From the NCBI GenBank assembly GCA_034211115.1, contig JAXHTH010000210.1, positions 546 to 64,545 on the forward strand: 64,000 nt of DNA. The letters run 5' to 3'. This DNA comes from Planctomycetota bacterium (GTDB lineage: Bacteria > Planctomycetota > Phycisphaerae > Phycisphaerales > SM1A02). Below the pieces are notes generated by a model. It had not been told where the DNA came from. It saw only the letters and a list, made by a program, of their open reading frames with translations, and did not search any database. Both the position numbers and the translations under genes were made by a program. Shown piece by piece: positions 3,064 to 49,285 of this stretch (the stretch's first letter is position 1; each line of letters starts with the position of its first letter).

Positions 3064-4656
<1,593 letters not shown>

Positions 4657-41057: not shown

Positions 41058-44000
41058 TCACGGCGCGCCGGCGCCCGCGCCGCGGGTGATCGTGATGCGA
41101 TCCTCGCCCATGTTCCAGAGGACGTGCTCGGCGTGATAGGGACGCATCGCGCCCTGGGTAAGGATCGACACCGTCCTCCCGGGGGCCGCGGTGAGGGTGG
41201 CCAGGCCGGTGGCGGTGTTGTAGTCGAACTCGTCGCAGGCGACGTCGCGCTCGGCGGTGCGGATGTACAGGCTGCCGTGGCCGAAGAGGCGCTGCACCTC
41301 CATGCGGCCGCCGAAGTTGAGCGAGCCGGCCTCCTGCTCGGCCCGCGCGGGCGCGCCGGCGGAGTGACGGAGGACGCCGGCGATGAGCCTCTGGCCGGTC
41401 AGCGTCGTCGTGCGGCCGCCGAGATTCTCGTGCAGGCACTCGACGTTCCCGCTCATCTCGATGTTGAACCGGTCATCGACCTCCCGGGTCATCTGAAGCT
41501 GTTCCTGCCAGCGGAAGAGGGTCGTTCCCTTCGTGGCGAAGGCATCGTCGGGCGAGGGCCGGTCGGACGGCTCGTCCGCCGCGGCGTCTTCCGCTCGGAG
41601 ATCGCGGATGAGCAGCTCGCCGGCGCCGACGACCTGTGCTTCCAGCGTCTGCTGGTTGTAGTCGATGTGCTGTCCGCCGATGTAGAAGACGCGGGGACGA
41701 TCGGAATGATCCTCCGTCAGCCAGGAGCGGTTCTCGAGCCGCGCTTCGCCGCGGGCAAGGAGGCGTTCCAGTTCCCGGTCACCTTCGCCGTCGGTCGGGC
41801 CGGTGAACTGGAGGGTGAGGATGCGGGCGACGGCGGTGTTGAGCTCCCGGGGGCTGGGGCGCGACTCGACGTCGACATCGCCGCGCAGCTCCAGGGCACC
41901 GCCGCCCTCGGGCTCCTGCTGATACATCGCCGAGCCGGTCCACCGCGCCTCAATGGATCGATCGCCGGCCGGGGTCGGCGGCTCGATGCGGCCGTCCACG
42001 TCCGCCCGGGGAATGGGCTCGCTGAAAGCGAGGAACCGTCCCGGTCCCTGCACCTCGTACGCCCCGCTCTGCCGCTCGAGAAGCACGTGCGTGCACCGAT
42101 CGAGGATGAACTCATCGGAGACGATGAGGACGCGCTCGCCGAACAGCTCGGCCGTCTCATCGGCGGCCTGCGCGATGAGCCGGTCGGCGAAGACGCGTTC
42201 GCCGCCGGCGGGCCGCACCTGCACGTCGCCCTCGGCCTCGATGGTGTCGACGGCGACGCGTGCGTCGGCGAACTCGCCGGCCCGCGGCGCCGGTCGATCC
42301 GACCCGGCCGTTTCTTCATCCGTCATTTCGGTGAAGGTGACGATGAGGGACTCGGCCCACATCCTCTGATTCGCATCGGCGATGCGCACGCCGCCCTCGG
42401 CGTCCATCCGCCGGGGCAGGGCCTGCCCGGCCGCGCCCTCTGTGAGATCGACTCGCAGCCGGTCGCAACTGATTTCACCTTCCTCGCCGACGCTGTGGGC
42501 GCGGACGGAGCCGATCGCCTCGATCGCCTCGATCGAGGATGAGCCGGCTTCAGCTTCGGTGAAGCGCAGGCGCATCTCCTCGGCGTGGGTGAGTTTCATC
42601 TCGGGGCTGACGACCTGGACGTTGCCACGGAAGGCGGCGATGCTCGGGCCGTCGGCGCTCGCCTCACCGGCTTCCGTCTTCTTCTCCGGGGCGACGACGA
42701 CGCCGTCGCGCCAGGTGATGCGCAGCTCTTCCGACCGATCGGGCACGTGATCGAGCAGCGCCGCCTCGCGCCGGCCATCGGAAGCCGCAAACACCGGCCG
42801 ATCGAAGCGGCGGAAGCGGCCCTTTCCTTCCAGCACGTACCGCCGGGCCGGTTCGTCGATCGTGATGCGGCGGGCGCGATCGATGACGTTCTCCCCGTCC
42901 ACGAGCCGCACATCGTCGCCTTCGAGGACGGCGCTGCGCCGCCCGCCGTCGATCTGGAGCAGATCGGCGAAGACGCGCTGCCCGTCGACGAGGCCCAACT
43001 GCACCGCGCCTTCGGCGGTAAGATGATCCAGGTCCGCGGACTGTCCGGCCGCGCCGGCGACCGCGCCTTCGCCAGCCGATGCGGGCGGATTGAAGTACGC
43101 ATCCAGCGATTGCGCCCACAGCGACTGCTCGTCGTCGGTGACCGCGACATCACCGAGGGCGAGGACGCGTCGGGCGTAGATCTCCTCATCGCGGCCGGGT
43201 AGGAACTCGACGACGAGCTCGCCGCAGTCGAGGCGGCCGGTTCGATCGCCGCCCGCCGGGCGATCCGTCCCGCCCCGGCCGGCGAGGTCGGACAGCGACA
43301 GATCGCGGCTGCGGGCGGCGACGGCGCCGTGGAAACGGGCGCGGCGGAGGGCGCGGAACATCCCGCCGCGTGACGCTTCATCGAAATCCAGATCGACGCG
43401 ATCGCGCCAGGCGATGTCGGTCGGCGCGGCCTCCGCCGTCACCTCGCCCCGCTCGTCGGACTCCGGCTGGACGAGCGCGGCACGCCCCGCGCCGATGAAG
43501 CCGCCGGTCTGGTCGCTTTCCGTCAGCCAGAACCGCTCGGCGGTCGCCTGCAGCTCCGGGCCGTGAATGTGCAGTCCGTGGCGATCAGAGGAGATCAGCT
43601 CGACCCGCCCGGCGGGGAGGTGATACTGCAGCAGGGCGCAGGTCGCCTCCGGCCCGGCGCTGTCGCTGATGCGCACCGGATCGCCGACGAGATCGAGCCG
43701 CGCACGCCGCGGCGAACTCAACCGCTCATCCGGATTCGTGATCGGGTCCATCGTGAGCCCGCCGGTGCAGGTGATGATCGTGTCATCCTCCCGCCGCGGG
43801 GGGGCGAGCGTGAGCGGCGAGGACTGGAACGAGGTGAGCGCAGCGCCGGCGAGCATCGCCTCGATCGTGCCCGGGCCGGCCGGCGCCGGCCGTTCCCCGC
43901 GCGCCGGCTTCGGTGTCTTCGGCGGCGATGAGGACGATCGGCCGGCGATCATCACCCCCAGCCCCTCGCTCTCCATCGTGAACACGATCGACAGCGAATC

Positions 44001-45011
44001 GCCGGTGATGCGCCGCTCCTCCGGCGCGCGGCCCTGTACGATCTCGACCTCGTCGTGCAGCGTGAGACGATAGAAGCGGATATCGGCGGGCGCGGCGGCC
44101 TCCTCGCCGGCGGGACGATCGTCTTTGGCGTCCGCACCCGCACCCGCGCGCGGCGGGCGAGAAGGGGGGCGGCGGTCGCCGTCGGCATCTTCCGCATCCG
44201 GCGCGGGCGCCCGTCGCCCCGCCGGGGGTGCGGGCTCCGTCTGCCTGTCGTCGTCGGATCGCGGCGCCGCGAGCCGGATGAACTGAAGCGCCTCGACCCG
44301 CGCGTGCTCGATCGTGTTCTCCCGGTCGTTGATGAGCAGCTTCAGCCCGCGGCCGCGGAACTCGCCCGTCGTCATCTCCACGTGAATCTCGTCATCGCAG
44401 CGCACTTCGCCGAGGATGTTGTCGAAGCTCGCCTCGGCCGTGCGGAGCAGCAGGGACGGCTCGTCGCGGGCCGGGTCCAGCACCGCCCCGGCGATCTGGT
44501 CGTAGCGATGAATGACCACGTTGCCCGTGAGCGTGCCGGACTCGATCGCCTGGCTGGGCGCGTAGGTCAGGGCGGTGTCGCCGCGGAGCGTGACCACCGC
44601 CCCGTCCCTGGCATAGATCTCGAGCATCGGCTCGGTCATGCGGAACCAGCCGTCGCCCATCCCCGCGGGATTGGGATCCAGATGCGCGAAGCGGTACTGC
44701 TGGGCAAGCTCGCCTTCCTCGTCGGCGACCTGAATCCAGCCGCCGGAGAGCGATCCGAGTTCCGCCACCCCGGGCTCGGACGCGCGGTCGAGCCGCTGCT
44801 CCTCCTCGGTGAGCCCGCCGGGGGTGACGAGCTCGCCCGTTTCCGCGGGCCTCTCTTCCCCCGCCCCGGCCGGCTGGCTGCGATCGAGGTTCATCACCAC
44901 CAGCAGAAGCAGGAGGGCGAGGATCACCCCGCATCCGGCGAGCAGAATCGTCTTCCGGGCGCTTCGCTTCACCGGCGGAGGCGCGTGATCGTGTGAGGGT
45001 TCACCGGCCAT
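41058..45011 (-). CDS. giant membrane-anchored protein with repeated OstA/LptC/LptA-like modules (function inferred)
   Basis: The 1317-aa ORF has consistent GC3 and an N-terminal TM segment (TILLAGCGVILALLLLLVV). It carries recurring LptA/LptC-style strand motifs, e.g. MTEPMLEIYARDGAVVTLRGDTALTYAPS..GTLTGNVVIH, AEGAVQLGLVDGQRVFADLLQIDGG..AVLEGDDVRLV, IEAEGDVQVRPAGGERVFADRLI and ACDEFDYNTATGLATLTAAPGRTVSIL. The CDS call is solid; the Lpt-like assignment is tentative. Confidence 0.6.
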   Translation of the reverse strand: MAGEPSHDHAPPPVKRSARKTILLAGCGVILALLLLLVVMNLDRSQPAGAGEERPAETGELVTPGGLTEEEQRLDRASEPGVAELGSLSGGWIQVADEEGELAQQYRFAHLDPNPAGMGDGWFRMTEPMLEIYARDGAVVTLRGDTALTYAPSQAIESGTLTGNVVIHRYDQIAGAVLDPARDEPSLLLRTAEASFDNILGEVRCDDEIHVEMTTGEFRGRGLKLLINDRENTIEHARVEALQFIRLAAPRSDDDRQTEPAPPAGRRAPAPDAEDADGDRRPPSRPPRAGAGADAKDDRPAGEEAAAPADIRFYRLTLHDEVEIVQGRAPEERRITGDSLSIVFTMESEGLGVMIAGRSSSSPPKTPKPARGERPAPAGPGTIEAMLAGAALTSFQSSPLTLAPPRREDDTIITCTGGLTMDPITNPDERLSSPRRARLDLVGDPVRISDSAGPEATCALLQYHLPAGRVELISSDRHGLHIHGPELQATAERFWLTESDQTGGFIGAGRAALVQPESDERGEVTAEAAPTDIAWRDRVDLDFDEASRGGMFRALRRARFHGAVAARSRDLSLSDLAGRGGTDRPAGGDRTGRLDCGELVVEFLPGRDEEIYARRVLALGDVAVTDDEQSLWAQSLDAYFNPPASAGEGAVAGAAGQSADLDHLTAEGAVQLGLVDGQRVFADLLQIDGGRRSAVLEGDDVRLVDGENVIDRARRITIDEPARRYVLEGKGRFRRFDRPVFAASDGRREAALLDHVPDRSEELRITWRDGVVVAPEKKTEAGEASADGPSIAAFRGNVQVVSPEMKLTHAEEMRLRFTEAEAGSSSIEAIEAIGSVRAHSVGEEGEISCDRLRVDLTEGAAGQALPRRMDAEGGVRIADANQRMWAESLIVTFTEMTDEETAGSDRPAPRAGEFADARVAVDTIEAEGDVQVRPAGGERVFADRLIAQAADETAELFGERVLIVSDEFILDRCTHVLLERQSGAYEVQGPGRFLAFSEPIPRADVDGRIEPPTPAGDRSIEARWTGSAMYQQEPEGGGALELRGDVDVESRPSPRELNTAVARILTLQFTGPTDGEGDRELERLLARGEARLENRSWLTEDHSDRPRVFYIGGQHIDYNQQTLEAQVVGAGELLIRDLRAEDAAADEPSDRPSPDDAFATKGTTLFRWQEQLQMTREVDDRFNIEMSGNVECLHENLGGRTTTLTGQRLIAGVLRHSAGAPARAEQEAGSLNFGGRMEVQRLFGHGSLYIRTAERDVACDEFDYNTATGLATLTAAPGRTVSILTQGAMRPYHAEHVLWNMGEDRITITRGAGAGAP

Positions 45012-45035
45012 GGCGTCGTCGTGTTCTCTTGATCA

Positions 45036-46696
45036 TTGACTCGTCCACCTGATCCGCATCAGCGTGTTGATCGGGTAGGGTATGCCATATCATCGGGGTT
45101 CGCGTGAGAATATGGCACGGCGTCGGTGGCGAGCGGTGGGATTGCCCGATGAGGGATGATCGCCGGCCGGGGCGTCGCGCGGCCGGGACGTCGCGCCGGC
45201 GGGGTCCGCCCGTCGGAGTTGTCTCATCGCGGGCGGCGGCTCGTTATTGAATAATTCACTTAATCGACGAGGCTGTGCCGATCGGGCAGGGGATGCCGGA
45301 CGGCGATTCGGAGGAGCGTGCGGAACGGCATCAGAGGCGTGCGATGGGGTTGCCCGATCAGGGCTGGCTGCCGGCCGGGGCGGCGCGTTGGCCCGGTCCG
45401 CCTGCGGCGGCCATCTGGCCGCGGCCGAGGGTCGGCCATTGAATAGTTCACTTAATCAACGAGGGTGTGCCGATCGGGCAGCGCATGCCGAACGGCGATT
45501 CGCGGGGGCGTGCGGAACGGCATCAGAGGCGGGCGATGGGGTTGGTCGATGAGGGCTGGCCGTCGGCCGGGACGTCGCGCTGGCCCGGTCCGCCCGCTGC
45601 GGCCATCTCGCTGCGGACGAAGATCGTCCATTGAATGGTTCACTTAATCGACGAAGGTGTGCCGATCGGGCAGCGCATGCCGGACGGCGATTCGCGGGGG
45701 CGTGCGGAACGGCATCAGAGGCGGGCGATGGGGTTGCGCGATGAGGGCTGGCCGCCGGCCGGGGCGGCGCGCCGGCCGGGCGTGCCCGCTGCGGCCATCT
45801 GGCCGCGGCCGAGGGTCGGCCATTGAATAGTCCACTCAATCAACGAGGCTGTGCCGATCGGGCAGGGGATGCCGGACGGCGATTCGCGGGGGCGTGCGGA
45901 ACGGCATCAGAGGCGCGCGATGAGGGCTGGCCGCCGGCCGGGGTGTTGCGCCGGCCGGGTGTGATACGCCCGCCGTCTGCCGCGGACGAGGCTCGTCCAT
46001 CGAATTGTTCACTTAATGGACGAGGCTGTGCCGATCGAATCGGGTATGCCGGACGGCGATTCGCGGGGGCGTGCGGAACGGCATCAGAGGCGTGCGATGG
46101 GGTTGCGCGATGAGGGCTGGCCGCCGGCCGGGGCGGCGCGTTGGCCCGGTCCGCCTGCGGCGGCCATCTGGCCGCGGACGAGGGTCGTCCATTGAATGGT
46201 TCACTTAATGGACGAGGCTGTACCGATCGAATCGGGTATGCCGGACGGCGATTCAAGGGTCCCTGCGGAACGGTATCGGTGGTGAGCGGCGGAGTTGCTC
46301 GATGAGAGCTGGCCGCCGGCCGGGGCGGCGCGCCGGCCGGGCGTGCCCGCTGCGGCCATCTGGCCGCGGACGAAGATCGTCTATTGAATGGTTCACTTAA
46401 TCGGCGAGGGTGTGCCGATCGGGCAGGGTATGCCGGACGGCGATTCGGGGGAGTGTGTGGGACGGTATCGGAGGCGTGCGATGGGGTTGGTCGATGAGGG
46501 CTGGCCGCCGGCCGGGTGTGCCCGCCGGGGCCGTCAGGTCGCGGGAAAGGACCGGCCATTGAATGCTCCACTTAATCAACGGGGATCCGTCCGTCGGCGT
46601 TGTCCCATCGCGGGCGAGGGCCGGCTATTGAATAGTTCACTTAATCAGCCACGGTGCGCGCGCTGCGGCCGTCTGGCCGCGGGTGGAGATCGGCCA
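45036..46696. repeat. head-to-tail array of IS630-like left-end units (period 192 bp)
   Basis: TTGAAT(A/G)GTTCACTTAAT recurs at 45247, 45439, 45631, 45823, 46000 (TCGAAT), 46192, 46384, 46559 and 46628, with a degenerate copy near 45036. Five spacings are exactly 192 bp. See findings. Confidence 0.9.
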
Positions 46697-47709
46697 ATGA
46701 ATAGTTCACTTAATCGACGAGGCTGTGCCGATCGGGTAGGGGATGCCATATCAGGGATCACGTGAGGACGCGGCACGGCGTCGAAGGCGGGCGATGCGGC
46801 TGCTCGGTCAGGGGTGGTCGCAGGCCGAAGTCGCGCGGAAGCTGAAGGTGACTCCCGCGGCCGTCTCGCAGTGGGTGAAGGCCCACCGGGAAGGCGGCGC
46901 CGACGCGCTGCGGGCCAGACCCCATCCCGGCGCGAAGCCCCGGCTGGATGATCGCCAGCTTCAGCGGCTGGAGACGCTGCTGGAGAAGGGTCCGCGCACG
47001 CGCGGCGCCGCGACGGATCGCTGGACGCTGAGGCGGGTGGCCGAGCTGATCGAGGACCGCTTCGGGGTCGCGTACGATCCCTCCGGCGTCTGGCACCTGC
47101 TGCATCGCATGGGTTGGCGTTTTCGGAGGCCGCGAGGCCGCGGACGCGAGGACCAGGGGAACGCGCGAGCGCAATGGCGCAAGGCGGACCGCCCGGGCGT
47201 TCGGAGAGACCGGAGGAGGCGGCGTGAGGATCAGCGTCGCCGGCCACGACGGGGACACACGTGAACTGGCCGTTGAACGCACCGAGGCGTCCAGGCGATG
47301 GCGGCCGAGTCGAGGGAGCGGGCATTGACGCGACCACCCCGTCGGCCTCCTGACCGCTGCGATGTCCCGGCAGCGCCGGCGGCCCGATCGATTCTCCGAT
47401 TCCCTCGGCGGCCGGGTCGAGGCGAACAACGGGCAGCGAGTCGCACGGCGGCGTCGATCCGGACGGTGCGACATCGTCGACACCCGACGGGTTGACGGCC
47501 CCGCCCTCACGCACGCGCGGGAAAGGTCCGGTTGCGCCGCCTCGCCGAATGCAGCCGGCGACGTCTGCGGAGGGACGAGGCAATCGGGCGGTGTCGGGGC
47601 CGCTTCGCCCCGCCACGACGTCCATCACCCGCGCTGGCGCTCGCGCTCCCTTCACGCCGCCATTTCACACGCCGCACCGTCCCTGCCGCGGGTCAAGTGA
47701 ACAGTTCAA
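46697..47709 (+). mobile_element. decayed IS630-family insertion sequence (~1.0 kb)
   Basis: The left end ATGAATAGTTCACTT (46697-46711) and the right end AAGTGAACAGTTCAA (47695-47709) are inverted complements (13/15 using the array consensus TTGAATAGTTCACTT). It encodes only an N-terminal transposase fragment, and the remainder is too short and frame-broken for a DDE domain. Confidence 0.7.
46743..47264 (+). pseudogene. IS630-family transposase, N-terminal HTH/winged-helix part only
   Basis: RRAMRLLGQGWSQAEVARKLKVTPAAVSQWVKAHREGGADALRARPHPGAKPRL......RWTLRRVAELIEDRFGVAYDPSGVWHLLHRMGW follows the IS630 N-terminal pattern. It then degenerates into Arg-rich sequence with no DDE motifs. Confidence 0.7.
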
Positions 47710-47717
47710 GGCCAGTG

Positions 47718-48236
47718 TCAGTCGAAAAGCGCCAGGGCTTCATCCCAGCGGTCCTGGGCCTTGAGCAGATGCTCGATCGCTTCGCGGACGGCCCCCTGAC
47801 CGCCGGGGCGTTCGGTCTCGAACGCCGCCAGCGCGCGGACCTCGCAGGCGGCATCGGCGACGGCGATCGGGTACCCGGCCAGGCGAAGCATGGGCAGATC
47901 GGGCAGATCGTCGCCCATCACCGCGGCCTCCGAGGCCGCCAGCCCCAGGTCGTTGAGCAGGTTCCCCAGCACGTCCATCTTGTTCCGCACGCCCTGAAAA
48001 ACGTGTCGAATGCCCAGCTCATCGGCGCGATGCTGGACGGTCATGCTCGATCGCCCGGTGATGATGGCGACCTCGTGGCCGAGCCTGCGCCAGATGGTGA
48101 TGCCCGCCCCGTCGCGCGTGTGGAAGGCCTTCGTCTCCACGCCGCGGGCGTCGATGGACACGAGCCCATCGCTGAGCACGCCGTCCACGTCGAGGACGAG
48201 CAGTCGTATTCTCCGGGCCGCATCATCGTCGGGCAT
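47718..48236 (-). CDS. kdsC: 3-deoxy-D-manno-octulosonate 8-phosphate phosphatase (HAD-IIIA)
   Basis: IRLLVLDVDGVLSDG, AFHTRDGAGI, VAIITGRSS and AVMGDDLPDLPM match the KdsC family at the typical ~170 aa size. Confidence 0.85.
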   Translation of the reverse strand: MPDDDAARRIRLLVLDVDGVLSDGLVSIDARGVETKAFHTRDGAGITIWRRLGHEVAIITGRSSMTVQHRADELGIRHVFQGVRNKMDVLGNLLNDLGLAASEAAVMGDDLPDLPMLRLAGYPIAVADAACEVRALAAFETERPGGQGAVREAIEHLLKAQDRWDEALALFD

Positions 48237-48300
48237 GGGGTCCGTTCCGGGGGTCCGCTGCGGAAGGGGATCAATGAGGCACAGTGTACCGGCTTGGCGT

Positions 48301-48891
48301 TCAGCGGAGCGTGCGGCGCATGATCGGGCGGGTGGGGGAACGGCGCAGGACTTCCCGGAAGCGTGCCTTCTCGAAGGCCGCGGGCAGGCCGGTCCAGGCG
48401 AACGCGTCCGGGATCGCTCCCTTGCGGGGCTCGACGGGGTAGCCTTCGACGATCTTCGCCCCGCCGCGCCGGGCGTACTGCACCGCCGCCTCGATGAGCT
48501 TCACCGACAGGCCGCTTCGGCGATGGGGCCGGGCGACGAAAAAGCACGTGATCGACCAAACCGGCTTCTCGTCAATCGGTTTGAGGACACGCGAGCGATT
48601 GAGCGAGGGGTACTCCTCGCGGGGGGCGATTGCGCACCAGCCGGCGGGTTCGCCATCGACGTAGGCGAGCACGCCCGGCTCGTGACCGTCACGAACGATC
48701 TTCCGGAACGCGCGTTTGTTGGGTGCGCCTTTCTTCTTCTCGAACTCGGCGCGGGTCATCCGCCACCACATGCACCAGCACCCGCCGCACGCGCCGCGTT
48801 CGCCGAAGAGCGCCTCGAGGTCGCCCCAGCGCTCGGGCGTGAGCGGGTGGAAGGCGAGGCGCGCGGAGGGTGGTTTCTTCATCTTCGCCAT
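48301..48891 (-). CDS. GNAT family N-acetyltransferase
   Basis: GACGGCWCMWWR N-terminal motif and the acetyl-CoA region FFVARPHRRSGLSVKLIEAAVQYARRGGAKIVEGYP. Confidence 0.8.
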   Translation of the reverse strand: MAKMKKPPSARLAFHPLTPERWGDLEALFGERGACGGCWCMWWRMTRAEFEKKKGAPNKRAFRKIVRDGHEPGVLAYVDGEPAGWCAIAPREEYPSLNRSRVLKPIDEKPVWSITCFFVARPHRRSGLSVKLIEAAVQYARRGGAKIVEGYPVEPRKGAIPDAFAWTGLPAAFEKARFREVLRRSPTRPIMRRTLR

Positions 48892-48931
48892 GGTCGATCG
48901 GATCGCCGGAGGCGCCCGGCCTTCGTCCGCT

Positions 48932-49285
48932 TCAGGCTTCCGTCTTCGGCCTGAACGCCAGGCGGGCGCGGTTCACGTCCGGATAGATCTCGAAGAACGT
49001 GTCGAGGCGGGTGAGCTCGAGGGCCTGGGGGACGATCCCGCCGATGGCGGCGAGCTTCACATCGCCGCCGTGTTCGCGCATCCGCTTGTGGAGCCGCAGC
49101 AGCACGCCCAGGCCGTAGCTGGAGATGTAGTTCAGCCTGCCGCAGTCGACGATGATCTTGCGCACACCCGCATCCACGAGCTTCTCGAGGCTCGTGATGA
49201 ACTGGTCGGCGGTGTCCGTGTTCAAGCCCCCATCGGCGATGAGGATGAGCACATCGTTGTCGATCTCGTCGTGGTAGAACTCCAT
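48932..49285 (-). CDS. STAS-domain anti-sigma-factor antagonist
   Basis: VLILIADGGLNTDTADQF...KIIVDCGRLNYISSYGLGVLLRLHKRMREHGGDVKLAAI (SpoIIAA-like, with the conserved Ser in YISSYGLG). Start is the ATG at 49285. Confidence 0.8.
   Translation of the reverse strand: MEFYHDEIDNDVLILIADGGLNTDTADQFITSLEKLVDAGVRKIIVDCGRLNYISSYGLGVLLRLHKRMREHGGDVKLAAIGGIVPQALELTRLDTFFEIYPDVNRARLAFRPKTEA

Follow-up and report, generated by a model that had tools for sequence, protein, structure and literature searches.

Tandem arrays built from DNA transposons are well known from eukaryotes. Satellites such as Tetris of Drosophila virilis, and those arising from dimers of hobo and other transposable elements, expand by unequal exchange (PMC4079207, PMC5932611, PMC12628747), and Bari1 forms a heterochromatic tandem cluster which is likewise a transposon-derived array (PMC8834629). 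As for prokaryotes, the available part of a survey in which satellites are taken as at least 4 repeats of 10-200 nt describes them as rare and mostly short, with long-unit non-coding arrays being rare, and reports none derived from the end of an insertion sequence (IS) (PMC6749651). Here we describe such an array in a 64,000-nucleotide stretch of a Planctomycetota metagenome-assembled genome (MAG; contig JAXHTH010000210.1, positions 546 to 64,545), referred to below as the window. The locus, which separates the kdsC gene from a gene encoding a large LptC/LptA-like protein, is probably a neutral minisatellite derived from the left end of an IS630-family element and lies beside a retained, possibly domesticated, orfA gene that codes for the helix-turn-helix (HTH) part of the transposase only.

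With the eukaryotic transposon satellites the locus shares the use of a piece of a DNA transposon as head-to-tail monomer, as well as unequal exchange, a homogenised interior and divergent edges. It differs from them in being situated on a bacterial chromosome, in consisting of ~10 copies (1.9 kb) and in occupying an operon spacer beside a surviving orfA. Moreover, its monomer is an internal segment of the left end, not a whole element or the internal repeat of a foldback element. Prokaryotic satellites and minisatellites are similar in that they are intergenic tandem repeats with a long unit (>30 nt), the difference being that the origin of the monomer is known here. The initial annotation of the window knew of no described equivalent. 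For bacteria this holds as far as searched, neither the available part of the satellite survey nor our scans having yielded a case in which a transposon end gave rise to a tandem array, whereas in eukaryotes this process is documented and the statement does not apply.

The presence of a single-copy transposase-derived protein together with multiple end-derived sequences is reminiscent of the RAYT/REP(IN) systems, in which a domesticated single-copy transposase is accompanied by repeats derived from the ends of the ancestral element (PMC5581495). However, RAYTs are HUH/Y1 enzymes of IS200/IS605 ancestry that have kept their catalytic domain, and REPs are hairpins dispersed genome-wide, whereas the locus described here, known from sequence alone, combines only the HTH module of a DDE transposase with repeats confined to one local array. 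In the IS3 family, the N-terminal HTH part is translated on its own as OrfA and recognises the inverted repeat (IS911 and ISSau2; PMC2909936, PMC5771124), but this likeness is an analogy, as both the family and the mechanism differ and DNA binding by the present OrfA is putative. With the IS630 family itself (IS630/Tc1/mariner superfamily) the locus shares the orfA profile, the HTH domains and an inverted repeat matching that of the relatives, whose terminus is TA|TTGATCnnTGAATAGTTCACTTAATC, and the insertion lies in a short spacer; what sets the window apart is a dead catalytic half, the loss of the frameshift site, a decayed right end and a left-hand 192 bp repeated ~10 times in tandem. Both the array and the survival of orfA are unusual for a bacterium.

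Structure of the array and its parent element

The 19-nt motif ATTGAATRGTTCACTTAAT occurs ten times in the window (up to 3 mismatches allowed), always on the + strand, at positions 45246, 45438, 45630, 45822, 45999, 46191, 46383, 46558, 46627 and 46696, and was found neither in the rest of the 64 kb nor in 100 shuffled sequences. The copies are spaced by 192 bp (five times), 177, 175, 69 and 69 bp, as the initial annotation had it. Tandem Repeats Finder (TRF) assigned a period of 192 to 45246-46516, with 6.7 copies, 83% matches and a score of 1660. The degenerate copy proposed near the start of the array is also real and lies at 45035. By alignment, the head-to-tail array extends over 45035-46887 and comprises 11 units, namely one decayed founder unit, seven near-full units, two 69-bp stubs and a final unit joined to the gene. 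They are numbered U0 (45035-45245, degenerate, 211 bp), U1-U7 (45246-46557), U8 and U9 (46558-46695) and U10 (46696-46887). The features of the insertion and its left flank are as follows.

45012..45028, no strand: what is left of the native spacer between kdsC and lptC, on the left side of the insertion; alignable to ...GAACAGACGACCACGCC|ATG, the spacer of the empty site in relative L133
45029..45245, + strand: U0, the original left end of the IS, with TTGATC, decayed inverted repeat, leader, orfA stub and 16-bp microrepeat (alignment, rooted counts)
45246..46557, + strand: U1-U7 (192, 192, 192, 177, 192, 192 and 175 bp), each with inverted-repeat core, 28-nt leader and ~48 decayed orfA codons (TRF, motif, alignment, tblastn)
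46558..46695, + strand: U8 and U9, internally deleted 69-bp stubs consisting of the inverted-repeat core and the 3' end of a unit (alignment); the 3' end of U8 is a U0-type variant
46696..46742, + strand: inverted-repeat core of U10 and 5' leader of orfA, conserved (1-2 derived sites of 42)
46743..47264, + strand: orfA, HTH-only N-terminal half of an IS630-family transposase, 173 aa (NF033545, Pfam HTH); conserved to ~aa 125, A7 frameshift site lost
47257..47692, + strand: orfB (DDE_3 half), dead, with an in-frame stop; ~55% ungapped-diagonal identity up to 47417, unrecognisable beyond
47693..47717, - strand: partly decayed right inverted repeat with core TCAAGTGAACAGTTCAA and outer part GGCCAGTG, abutting the kdsC stop codon (comparison with relatives)

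In each unit the inner core of the inverted repeat is followed by a leader of 28 nt and then by the initial ~48 orfA codons. U1-U7 are 79-91% identical among themselves and 65-70% identical to the IS left end present in U10, while the length of U0 is explained by a microrepeat (16 bp, 2.9 copies, 45160-45204). A tblastn search with OrfA of the related element L003 matched six of the seven units U1-U7, all in one frame, five of them with E values between 1e-5 and 4e-4 and U7 with one of 0.034; the 177-bp unit U4 gave no match at E <= 10. In agreement with the initial annotation, the array is hence a tandem amplification of an IS630-type left end together with an HTH-coding orfA stub. It is not an array of MITEs (miniature transposable elements with inverted repeats), all ten motif copies being on the + strand with no inverted partner within the units, nor a CRISPR, as the entire 192-bp unit is repeated and there are no unique spacers.

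The units are, however, not the full transposon ends for which they had been taken. The outer terminus TTGATC (45029-45034) is kept in the leftmost unit U0 only, and the interior units as well as U10 begin ~6 nt inside the IS end, so the duplicated segment starts ~6 nt within the element. Because the outer 6 nt of the terminus are absent, the array units would be at most putative binding sites and not cleavable ends. The sequence GATCGKCC in front of each repeat was considered as a candidate outer terminus and rejected, since its spacing in relation to the relatives and to U0 assigns it to the end of the preceding orfA stub. A palindrome around the repeat, forming a hairpin in U5 and U6, was dropped as well, being not kept across the units on inspection.

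The open reading frame (ORF) attached to U10 (46743-47264, 173 aa) matches positions 1-134 of 299 of the NCBIfam model NF033545 "IS630 family transposase" with 100 bits (cutoff 100; E 1.6e-28) and also the Pfam families HTH_23/28/29/32/33. Its homologues, with identities of up to 67%, are all OrfA proteins of 140-175 aa, many of them encoded on contigs of ~1.0-1.3 kb. In the relatives retrieved for the intact element (L003, L005, L006, L007 and L022), a 167-aa orfA, an A7 run and a 166-aa orfB with a DDE_3 domain (PF13358) make up ~1.1 kb in total. Both IS ends are recognisable in the window, the left one in U0 (45029-45056) and the right one at 47693-47717. This bears out the view that the last unit leads into a decayed IS630-type element with an inverted right end: the sequence at 47693-47709, separated by 8 nt from the stop codon of kdsC, is similar to the right ends found in the relatives. 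The ends of the relatives are flanked by TA; in the window TC and TG/GTG stand in these places, which would fit a decayed TA target and is no proof of one. No further copy of the element is present within the window, and a collection of 5.8 billion proteins, the assembly of the same sequencing run included, contains no OrfA more than 67% identical. The closest one comes from other samples, and the cluster of the window's OrfA consists of one contig. Public data therefore appear to hold no close sibling of this IS, and the element in the window is a relic and not a mobile element.

The insertion site is flanked by two genes.

41058..45011, - strand: LptC/LptA(OstA_N)-like gene, 1317 aa (Pfam LptD_N, E 1.9e-6; TIGR04409 LptC below cutoff; orthologues, synteny)
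47718..48236, - strand: kdsC (KDO 8-phosphate phosphatase), upstream operon partner (TIGR01670, 149 bits vs cutoff 107; synteny)

The three nearest orthologues of the 1317-aa protein share 77%, 63% and 63% amino acid identity with it, and the gene order in all three relatives is STAS - acetyltransferase - kdsC - 18-20 bp - LptC/LptA-like gene - AhpC. In the window the gap between kdsC and the lptC-like gene amounts to 2,706 bp. What remains of the ancestral spacer is found next to U0 at one end of the block and next to the right inverted repeat at the other. Since the three relatives possess the empty site of 18-20 bp and spacer remnants flank the block, the ~2.7 kb at 45029-47717 are one lineage-specific IS insertion, with U0 as its original left end. 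Accordingly, neither the array nor orfA is found at this locus in the three closest available relatives, and the locus itself was found in one sample only. The insertion separates the 1317-aa gene from kdsC, and the array constitutes the whole upstream region of that gene. Divergence from the closest relative at four-fold degenerate sites is 0.26 for kdsC and 0.35 for the large gene (636 sites, GC3 0.87). As this is of the same order as the neutral decay inside the insertion, the latter is old. Every stage in the birth of such an array is preserved here, from the empty site that relatives still show, through the original left end and the interior with its homogenised units, to the gene-attached copy.

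Decay of the units and retention of orfA

Alignment of the units revealed a mosaic structure. The first third of U5 corresponds to U6 (95%), its middle third to U2-U4 (95-98%) and its last third to U1 (96%), while the last third of U6 pairs with U3 (93%). Older variants are kept by the edge units U0, U8 and U10; U0 and U10 share ATGCCATATCA, and the segment from the 3' end of U8 to the start of U9 (46582-46659) is 79% identical to that from the 3' end of U0 to the start of U1 (45201-45278). Mosaic units combined with older variants at the edges bear the apparent signature of unequal crossover and gene conversion, and the discordant identities of the segments agree with the earlier suggestion that the outer units are older and the interior has been homogenised by unequal crossover. 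U0 and the interior share 15 derived sites, 9 of them with the same base, against a hand-estimated chance expectation of ~9 and ~4, respectively; this exceeds chance only modestly and gives no clear order of the duplications. Polymorphism within the array amounts to 6% in the inverted repeat, 12% in the leader and 9% in the stub, the difference being not significant (inverted repeat versus stub, p = 0.26). Because polymorphism is uniform along the unit, no per-unit constraint on the repeat is visible.

The back-to-back 63-codon ORFs of the array had been noted before and interpreted, among other possibilities, as a battery of small HTH peptides. The data do not support this interpretation. The differences between the unit consensus and U10 are distributed over the three codon positions as 15/20/17, and those between the units and their own consensus as 38/31/22. 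Pfam yielded no match for the 49-aa unit peptides or for the ORFs of 125, 127, 243 and 336 aa, the 63-aa unit ORF has no homologue among the 5.8 billion proteins, and no record of the 243-aa ORF exists. The aligned unit peptides have prolines where the first HTH has helix residues. At 70% GC, chance is expected to produce long ORFs on either strand. Given the lack of codon-position bias, homologues and domains, the stubs are neutral and non-coding, and the unit ORFs are not genes. An Rfam scan of 44000-49000 at E <= 1 detected no RNA family, and the predicted RNA structure of the unit is unremarkable on either strand (z = -2.4 and -1.8). Neither a sigma-70-like promoter nor a minus-strand terminator was found; the sole terminator-like site is weak and is located at the start of the gene.

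The fate of the attached gene is different. Along the ungapped diagonal with L003, the stretch 46758-47117 has an identity of 0.68-0.85 and the stretch 47118-47417 one of only 0.50-0.60; beyond that it is lost, the background being 0.29 +/- 0.03. Global alignment identity was discarded as uninformative for the orfB remnant, since shuffled sequences gave 62-65%, and the ungapped diagonal together with rooted counts was used instead. When derived sites were scored at positions where at least 3 of 4 relatives agree, lineage-specific changes were found at 80 of 365 sites in orfA (22%), a value within the range of the relatives (17-23%), and at 95 of 202 sites in the orfB remnant (47%), compared with 12-14% in the three relatives with an intact orfB and 23% in the decayed element L002. 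The contrast between orfA and orfB is highly significant (p = 1.5e-9). Changes in orfA are biased towards the third codon position (27/31/58, p = 6e-4), whereas the orfB remnant displays no bias (20/27/27). The remnant also carries an in-frame stop and retains ~55% ungapped nucleotide identity over 47178-47417, OrfB of a relative finds no tblastn match in the window, and the slippery A7 run is gone. The catalytic orfB is thus almost randomised and dead.

An internal clock is provided by the paralogous stubs and the dead orfB, which give the neutral rate. Over the first 48 codons, U10 has accumulated 6 changes since the duplication, as opposed to ~29 for U0 and ~28 for the consensus of the interior units (binomial p = 6e-5; counts rooted on four relatives, by which the U0 stub has ~29-33 derived changes). 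Four of the six U10-specific changes are synonymous third-position changes, as judged from a hand translation with no tool tally, and 22 of the 23 near-invariant residues of the OrfA family are kept, the exception being G35K at the glycine of the HTH turn. With ~5x fewer changes than its own stub paralogues, orfA clearly appears to be under purifying selection, which has preserved the DNA-binding half of the transposase. It has the character of a single-copy transposase-derived gene under selection after the loss of mobility, in one lineage only and with the G35K replacement. The region in front of it (46696-46742) is probably the orfA promoter/operator region, judging from its conservation.

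Origin of the locus and competing explanations

The following course of events would account for these observations. An IS630-family element comprising orfA, an A7 frameshift site and a DDE_3 orfB would have entered the ~20 bp that separated kdsC from the LptC/LptA-like gene in a lineage of Planctomycetota. Tandem duplication then most likely affected a 192-bp segment next to the left end of the element, on its inner side, including the inner repeat core, the 5' leader and 48 orfA codons, and unequal crossover and gene conversion between the copies would have expanded and reshuffled the array to ~10 copies. The stubs, being presumably non-coding, would drift neutrally, and the founder U0 and the catalytic orfB would decay, while U10 and orfA, that is, the two-HTH DNA-binding module (aa 1-125), would have stayed under purifying selection. 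The array itself is most likely devoid of function. If OrfA does not bind it, the locus is a clean example of long-persisting repetitive junk in a large Planctomycetota genome.

Several observations weigh against this account. Between the interior consensus and U10 there are 3 differences in the first 52 nt and 52 in the 140 nt that follow (p = 5e-6), and the 18-nt inverted-repeat core of the interior equals the family consensus, U0 having lost ~5-6 of the 18 positions. Rooted derived sites in the repeat-plus-leader segment (42 nt) number 10 in U0 and 1-2 each in the interior and U10. This 52-nt discontinuity could reflect selection on a binding site and leader within the array. In addition, ~1.7 kb of repeats have persisted for ~0.3 substitutions/site, which is long for bacterial junk DNA in view of deletion bias. 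The G35K replacement lies in the HTH turn, so the activity of OrfA is not assured; the apparent conservation of orfA could also stem from conversion by a now-lost active copy. Lastly, the arrangement comes from one genome and one sample, and the interior of the array (45285-46706) falls outside the cover of independent contigs. As regards the discontinuity, we prefer a single unequal crossover near the ATG, which would have joined a 5' part taken from U10 to the 3' part of a decayed stub. Following such an event 4.6 changes would be expected and 1 is seen (p = 0.056, borderline). The crossover is preferred because polymorphism of the repeat is not below that of the stub and because positions of the repeat that are conserved in the family are altered in the individual units U4, U5 and U8.

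A possible, albeit rather unlikely, alternative to a neutral array is a domesticated regulator with multiple operators, in which the HTH-only OrfA would bind the repeat cores placed every 192 bp between orfA (+) and the LptC/LptA-like gene (-). It would serve autoregulation and/or the control or insulation of an envelope gene cut off from the promoter of the kdsC operon, and the array would be kept by selection. The joint conservation of orfA and its own repeat-plus-leader next to a dead orfB is in line with this, and so are the family-consensus core of the interior, with 1-2 derived sites of 42 where ~10 would be expected from its own stub rate, and the long persistence of the array. Furthermore, the array forms the whole upstream region of a gene that follows kdsC by 18-20 bp in relatives, and there is no active sibling IS that would otherwise explain the retention of OrfA. 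On the other hand, the decay in U4, U5 and U8, the polymorphism of the repeat (6% vs 9% in the stub), the lack of promoter-like sites and the replacement in the HTH turn do not speak for selected operators; the single crossover explains the discontinuity almost as well, and the arrangement is found in one genome only, with no other arrays detected in the scans. The bolder version, in which OrfA is a domesticated IS630 DNA-binding protein and the 192-bp array a selected multi-site landing pad, a nucleoprotein or operator structure controlling both orfA and the orphaned lipopolysaccharide (LPS)-transport gene, seems doubtful; it would make the locus a single-lineage analogue of CENP-B and the CENP-B box or of RAYT/REP. 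If OrfA does bind the array, the locus would represent a very young transposase-derived transcription factor with its array of binding sites in front of an LPS-transport gene.

Conservation of orfA in appearance only, the left ~450 bp (U10 and orfA) having been recently converted by a lost active copy while the whole locus decays as junk, is improbable. The contrast between orfA and orfB does start abruptly at ~47118, like the edge of a conversion tract, and conversion has clearly been active among the units. Yet neither the same run nor other data contain a detectable donor, the U10-specific changes are mostly synonymous (by hand translation), as predicted by selection, and the boundary at ~aa 125 falls at the point where the two-HTH module gives way to the linker, which is where selection on a DNA-binding domain would place it.

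Inhibitors of transposition in other systems include truncated transposases as well as non-autonomous copies. A decoy array had been proposed earlier, and in its fullest form the array would titrate full-length IS630 transposase, with OrfA as a truncated-transposase inhibitor, protecting the host from active copies. Despite the conservation of OrfA, and although units that keep the inner inverted repeat (the presumed binding part) and lack the outer terminus could be bound uncut, this seems very improbable: with no close OrfA, the nearest being the 67% identical protein from other samples, and no other repeat copies in the window, no transposase is visible that could be titrated.

An assembly artefact, be it repeat expansion or a chimeric order of units, is the least credible explanation, for although the interior of the array is outside the independent contigs and mosaic units could in principle be chimeric joins, the units differ by 9-21% and by distinct indels, and the longest exact repeat is 62 nt, so that ordinary reads and k-mers (k >= 71) resolve their order. 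Two k=31 Logan contigs of run SRR24907501 match the window with 100% identity; they end at 45284 and 46707, precisely at the onset of the first shared 31-mers (45255 / 46705), and confirm two different contexts of the same repeat-plus-leader sequence.

Related sequences and neighbouring genes

No second example of such an array emerged from the scans, the genome scan being saturated by chance matches. In the scan of genome contigs with the 17-nt repeat core, the matches listed were mostly AT-rich chance matches, and only L022, L024, L049 and L056 among them were relevant, each with a single copy. A metagenome scan for two repeat cores 176-206 bp apart returned four unrelated low-GC contigs only. 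On the unrelated contig L129 (Ga0256826_1008825, GC 22%), the 16-nt search pattern recurs eight times every 66-69 bp at 3089-3569; its resemblance to the 69-bp stubs looks coincidental.

At three of the loci with a single core, L024 (~214), L049 (~7949) and L056 (~4756, Planctomycetota MAG B90T1L10), the terminus TA|TTGATCTTTGAATAGTTCACTTAATC is followed by non-orfA sequence. This sequence is near-identical in L024 and L056, the retrieved stretch of L049 ending ~35 nt past the terminus. These loci may represent a MITE or another element using the same inverted repeat.

In the decayed IS relative at L002 3890-5095 (JGI 3300033141, Ga0366833_1011868), the right end repeats the element's own left end in inverted orientation, down to ~42 codons into orfA (5086-4915). 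Its breakpoint falls in the same TPAA codons at which the array unit of the window ends, and this spot of orfA may be prone to breakage or recombination. The same metagenome, JGI 3300033141, contains L136, a relative of the host with an empty kdsC-lptC site, in addition to L002; the IS group evidently circulates in communities that include relatives of the host.

The 1317-aa protein downstream of the array, which NCBI lists for a Planctomycetota MAG under the name hypothetical protein, displays a weak N-terminal match to LptC along with a match to LptA/OstA_N, and is conserved beside kdsC in Phycisphaerae-like MAGs. From its domain matches and synteny it looks like an unusual giant LPS-transport bridge protein. 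Elsewhere in the window, a short GATGAGCGATAAGCG-like tandem repeat at 58775-58822 matches the IS flank in the metagenome contig L003 (1-45), which is probably a low-complexity coincidence.

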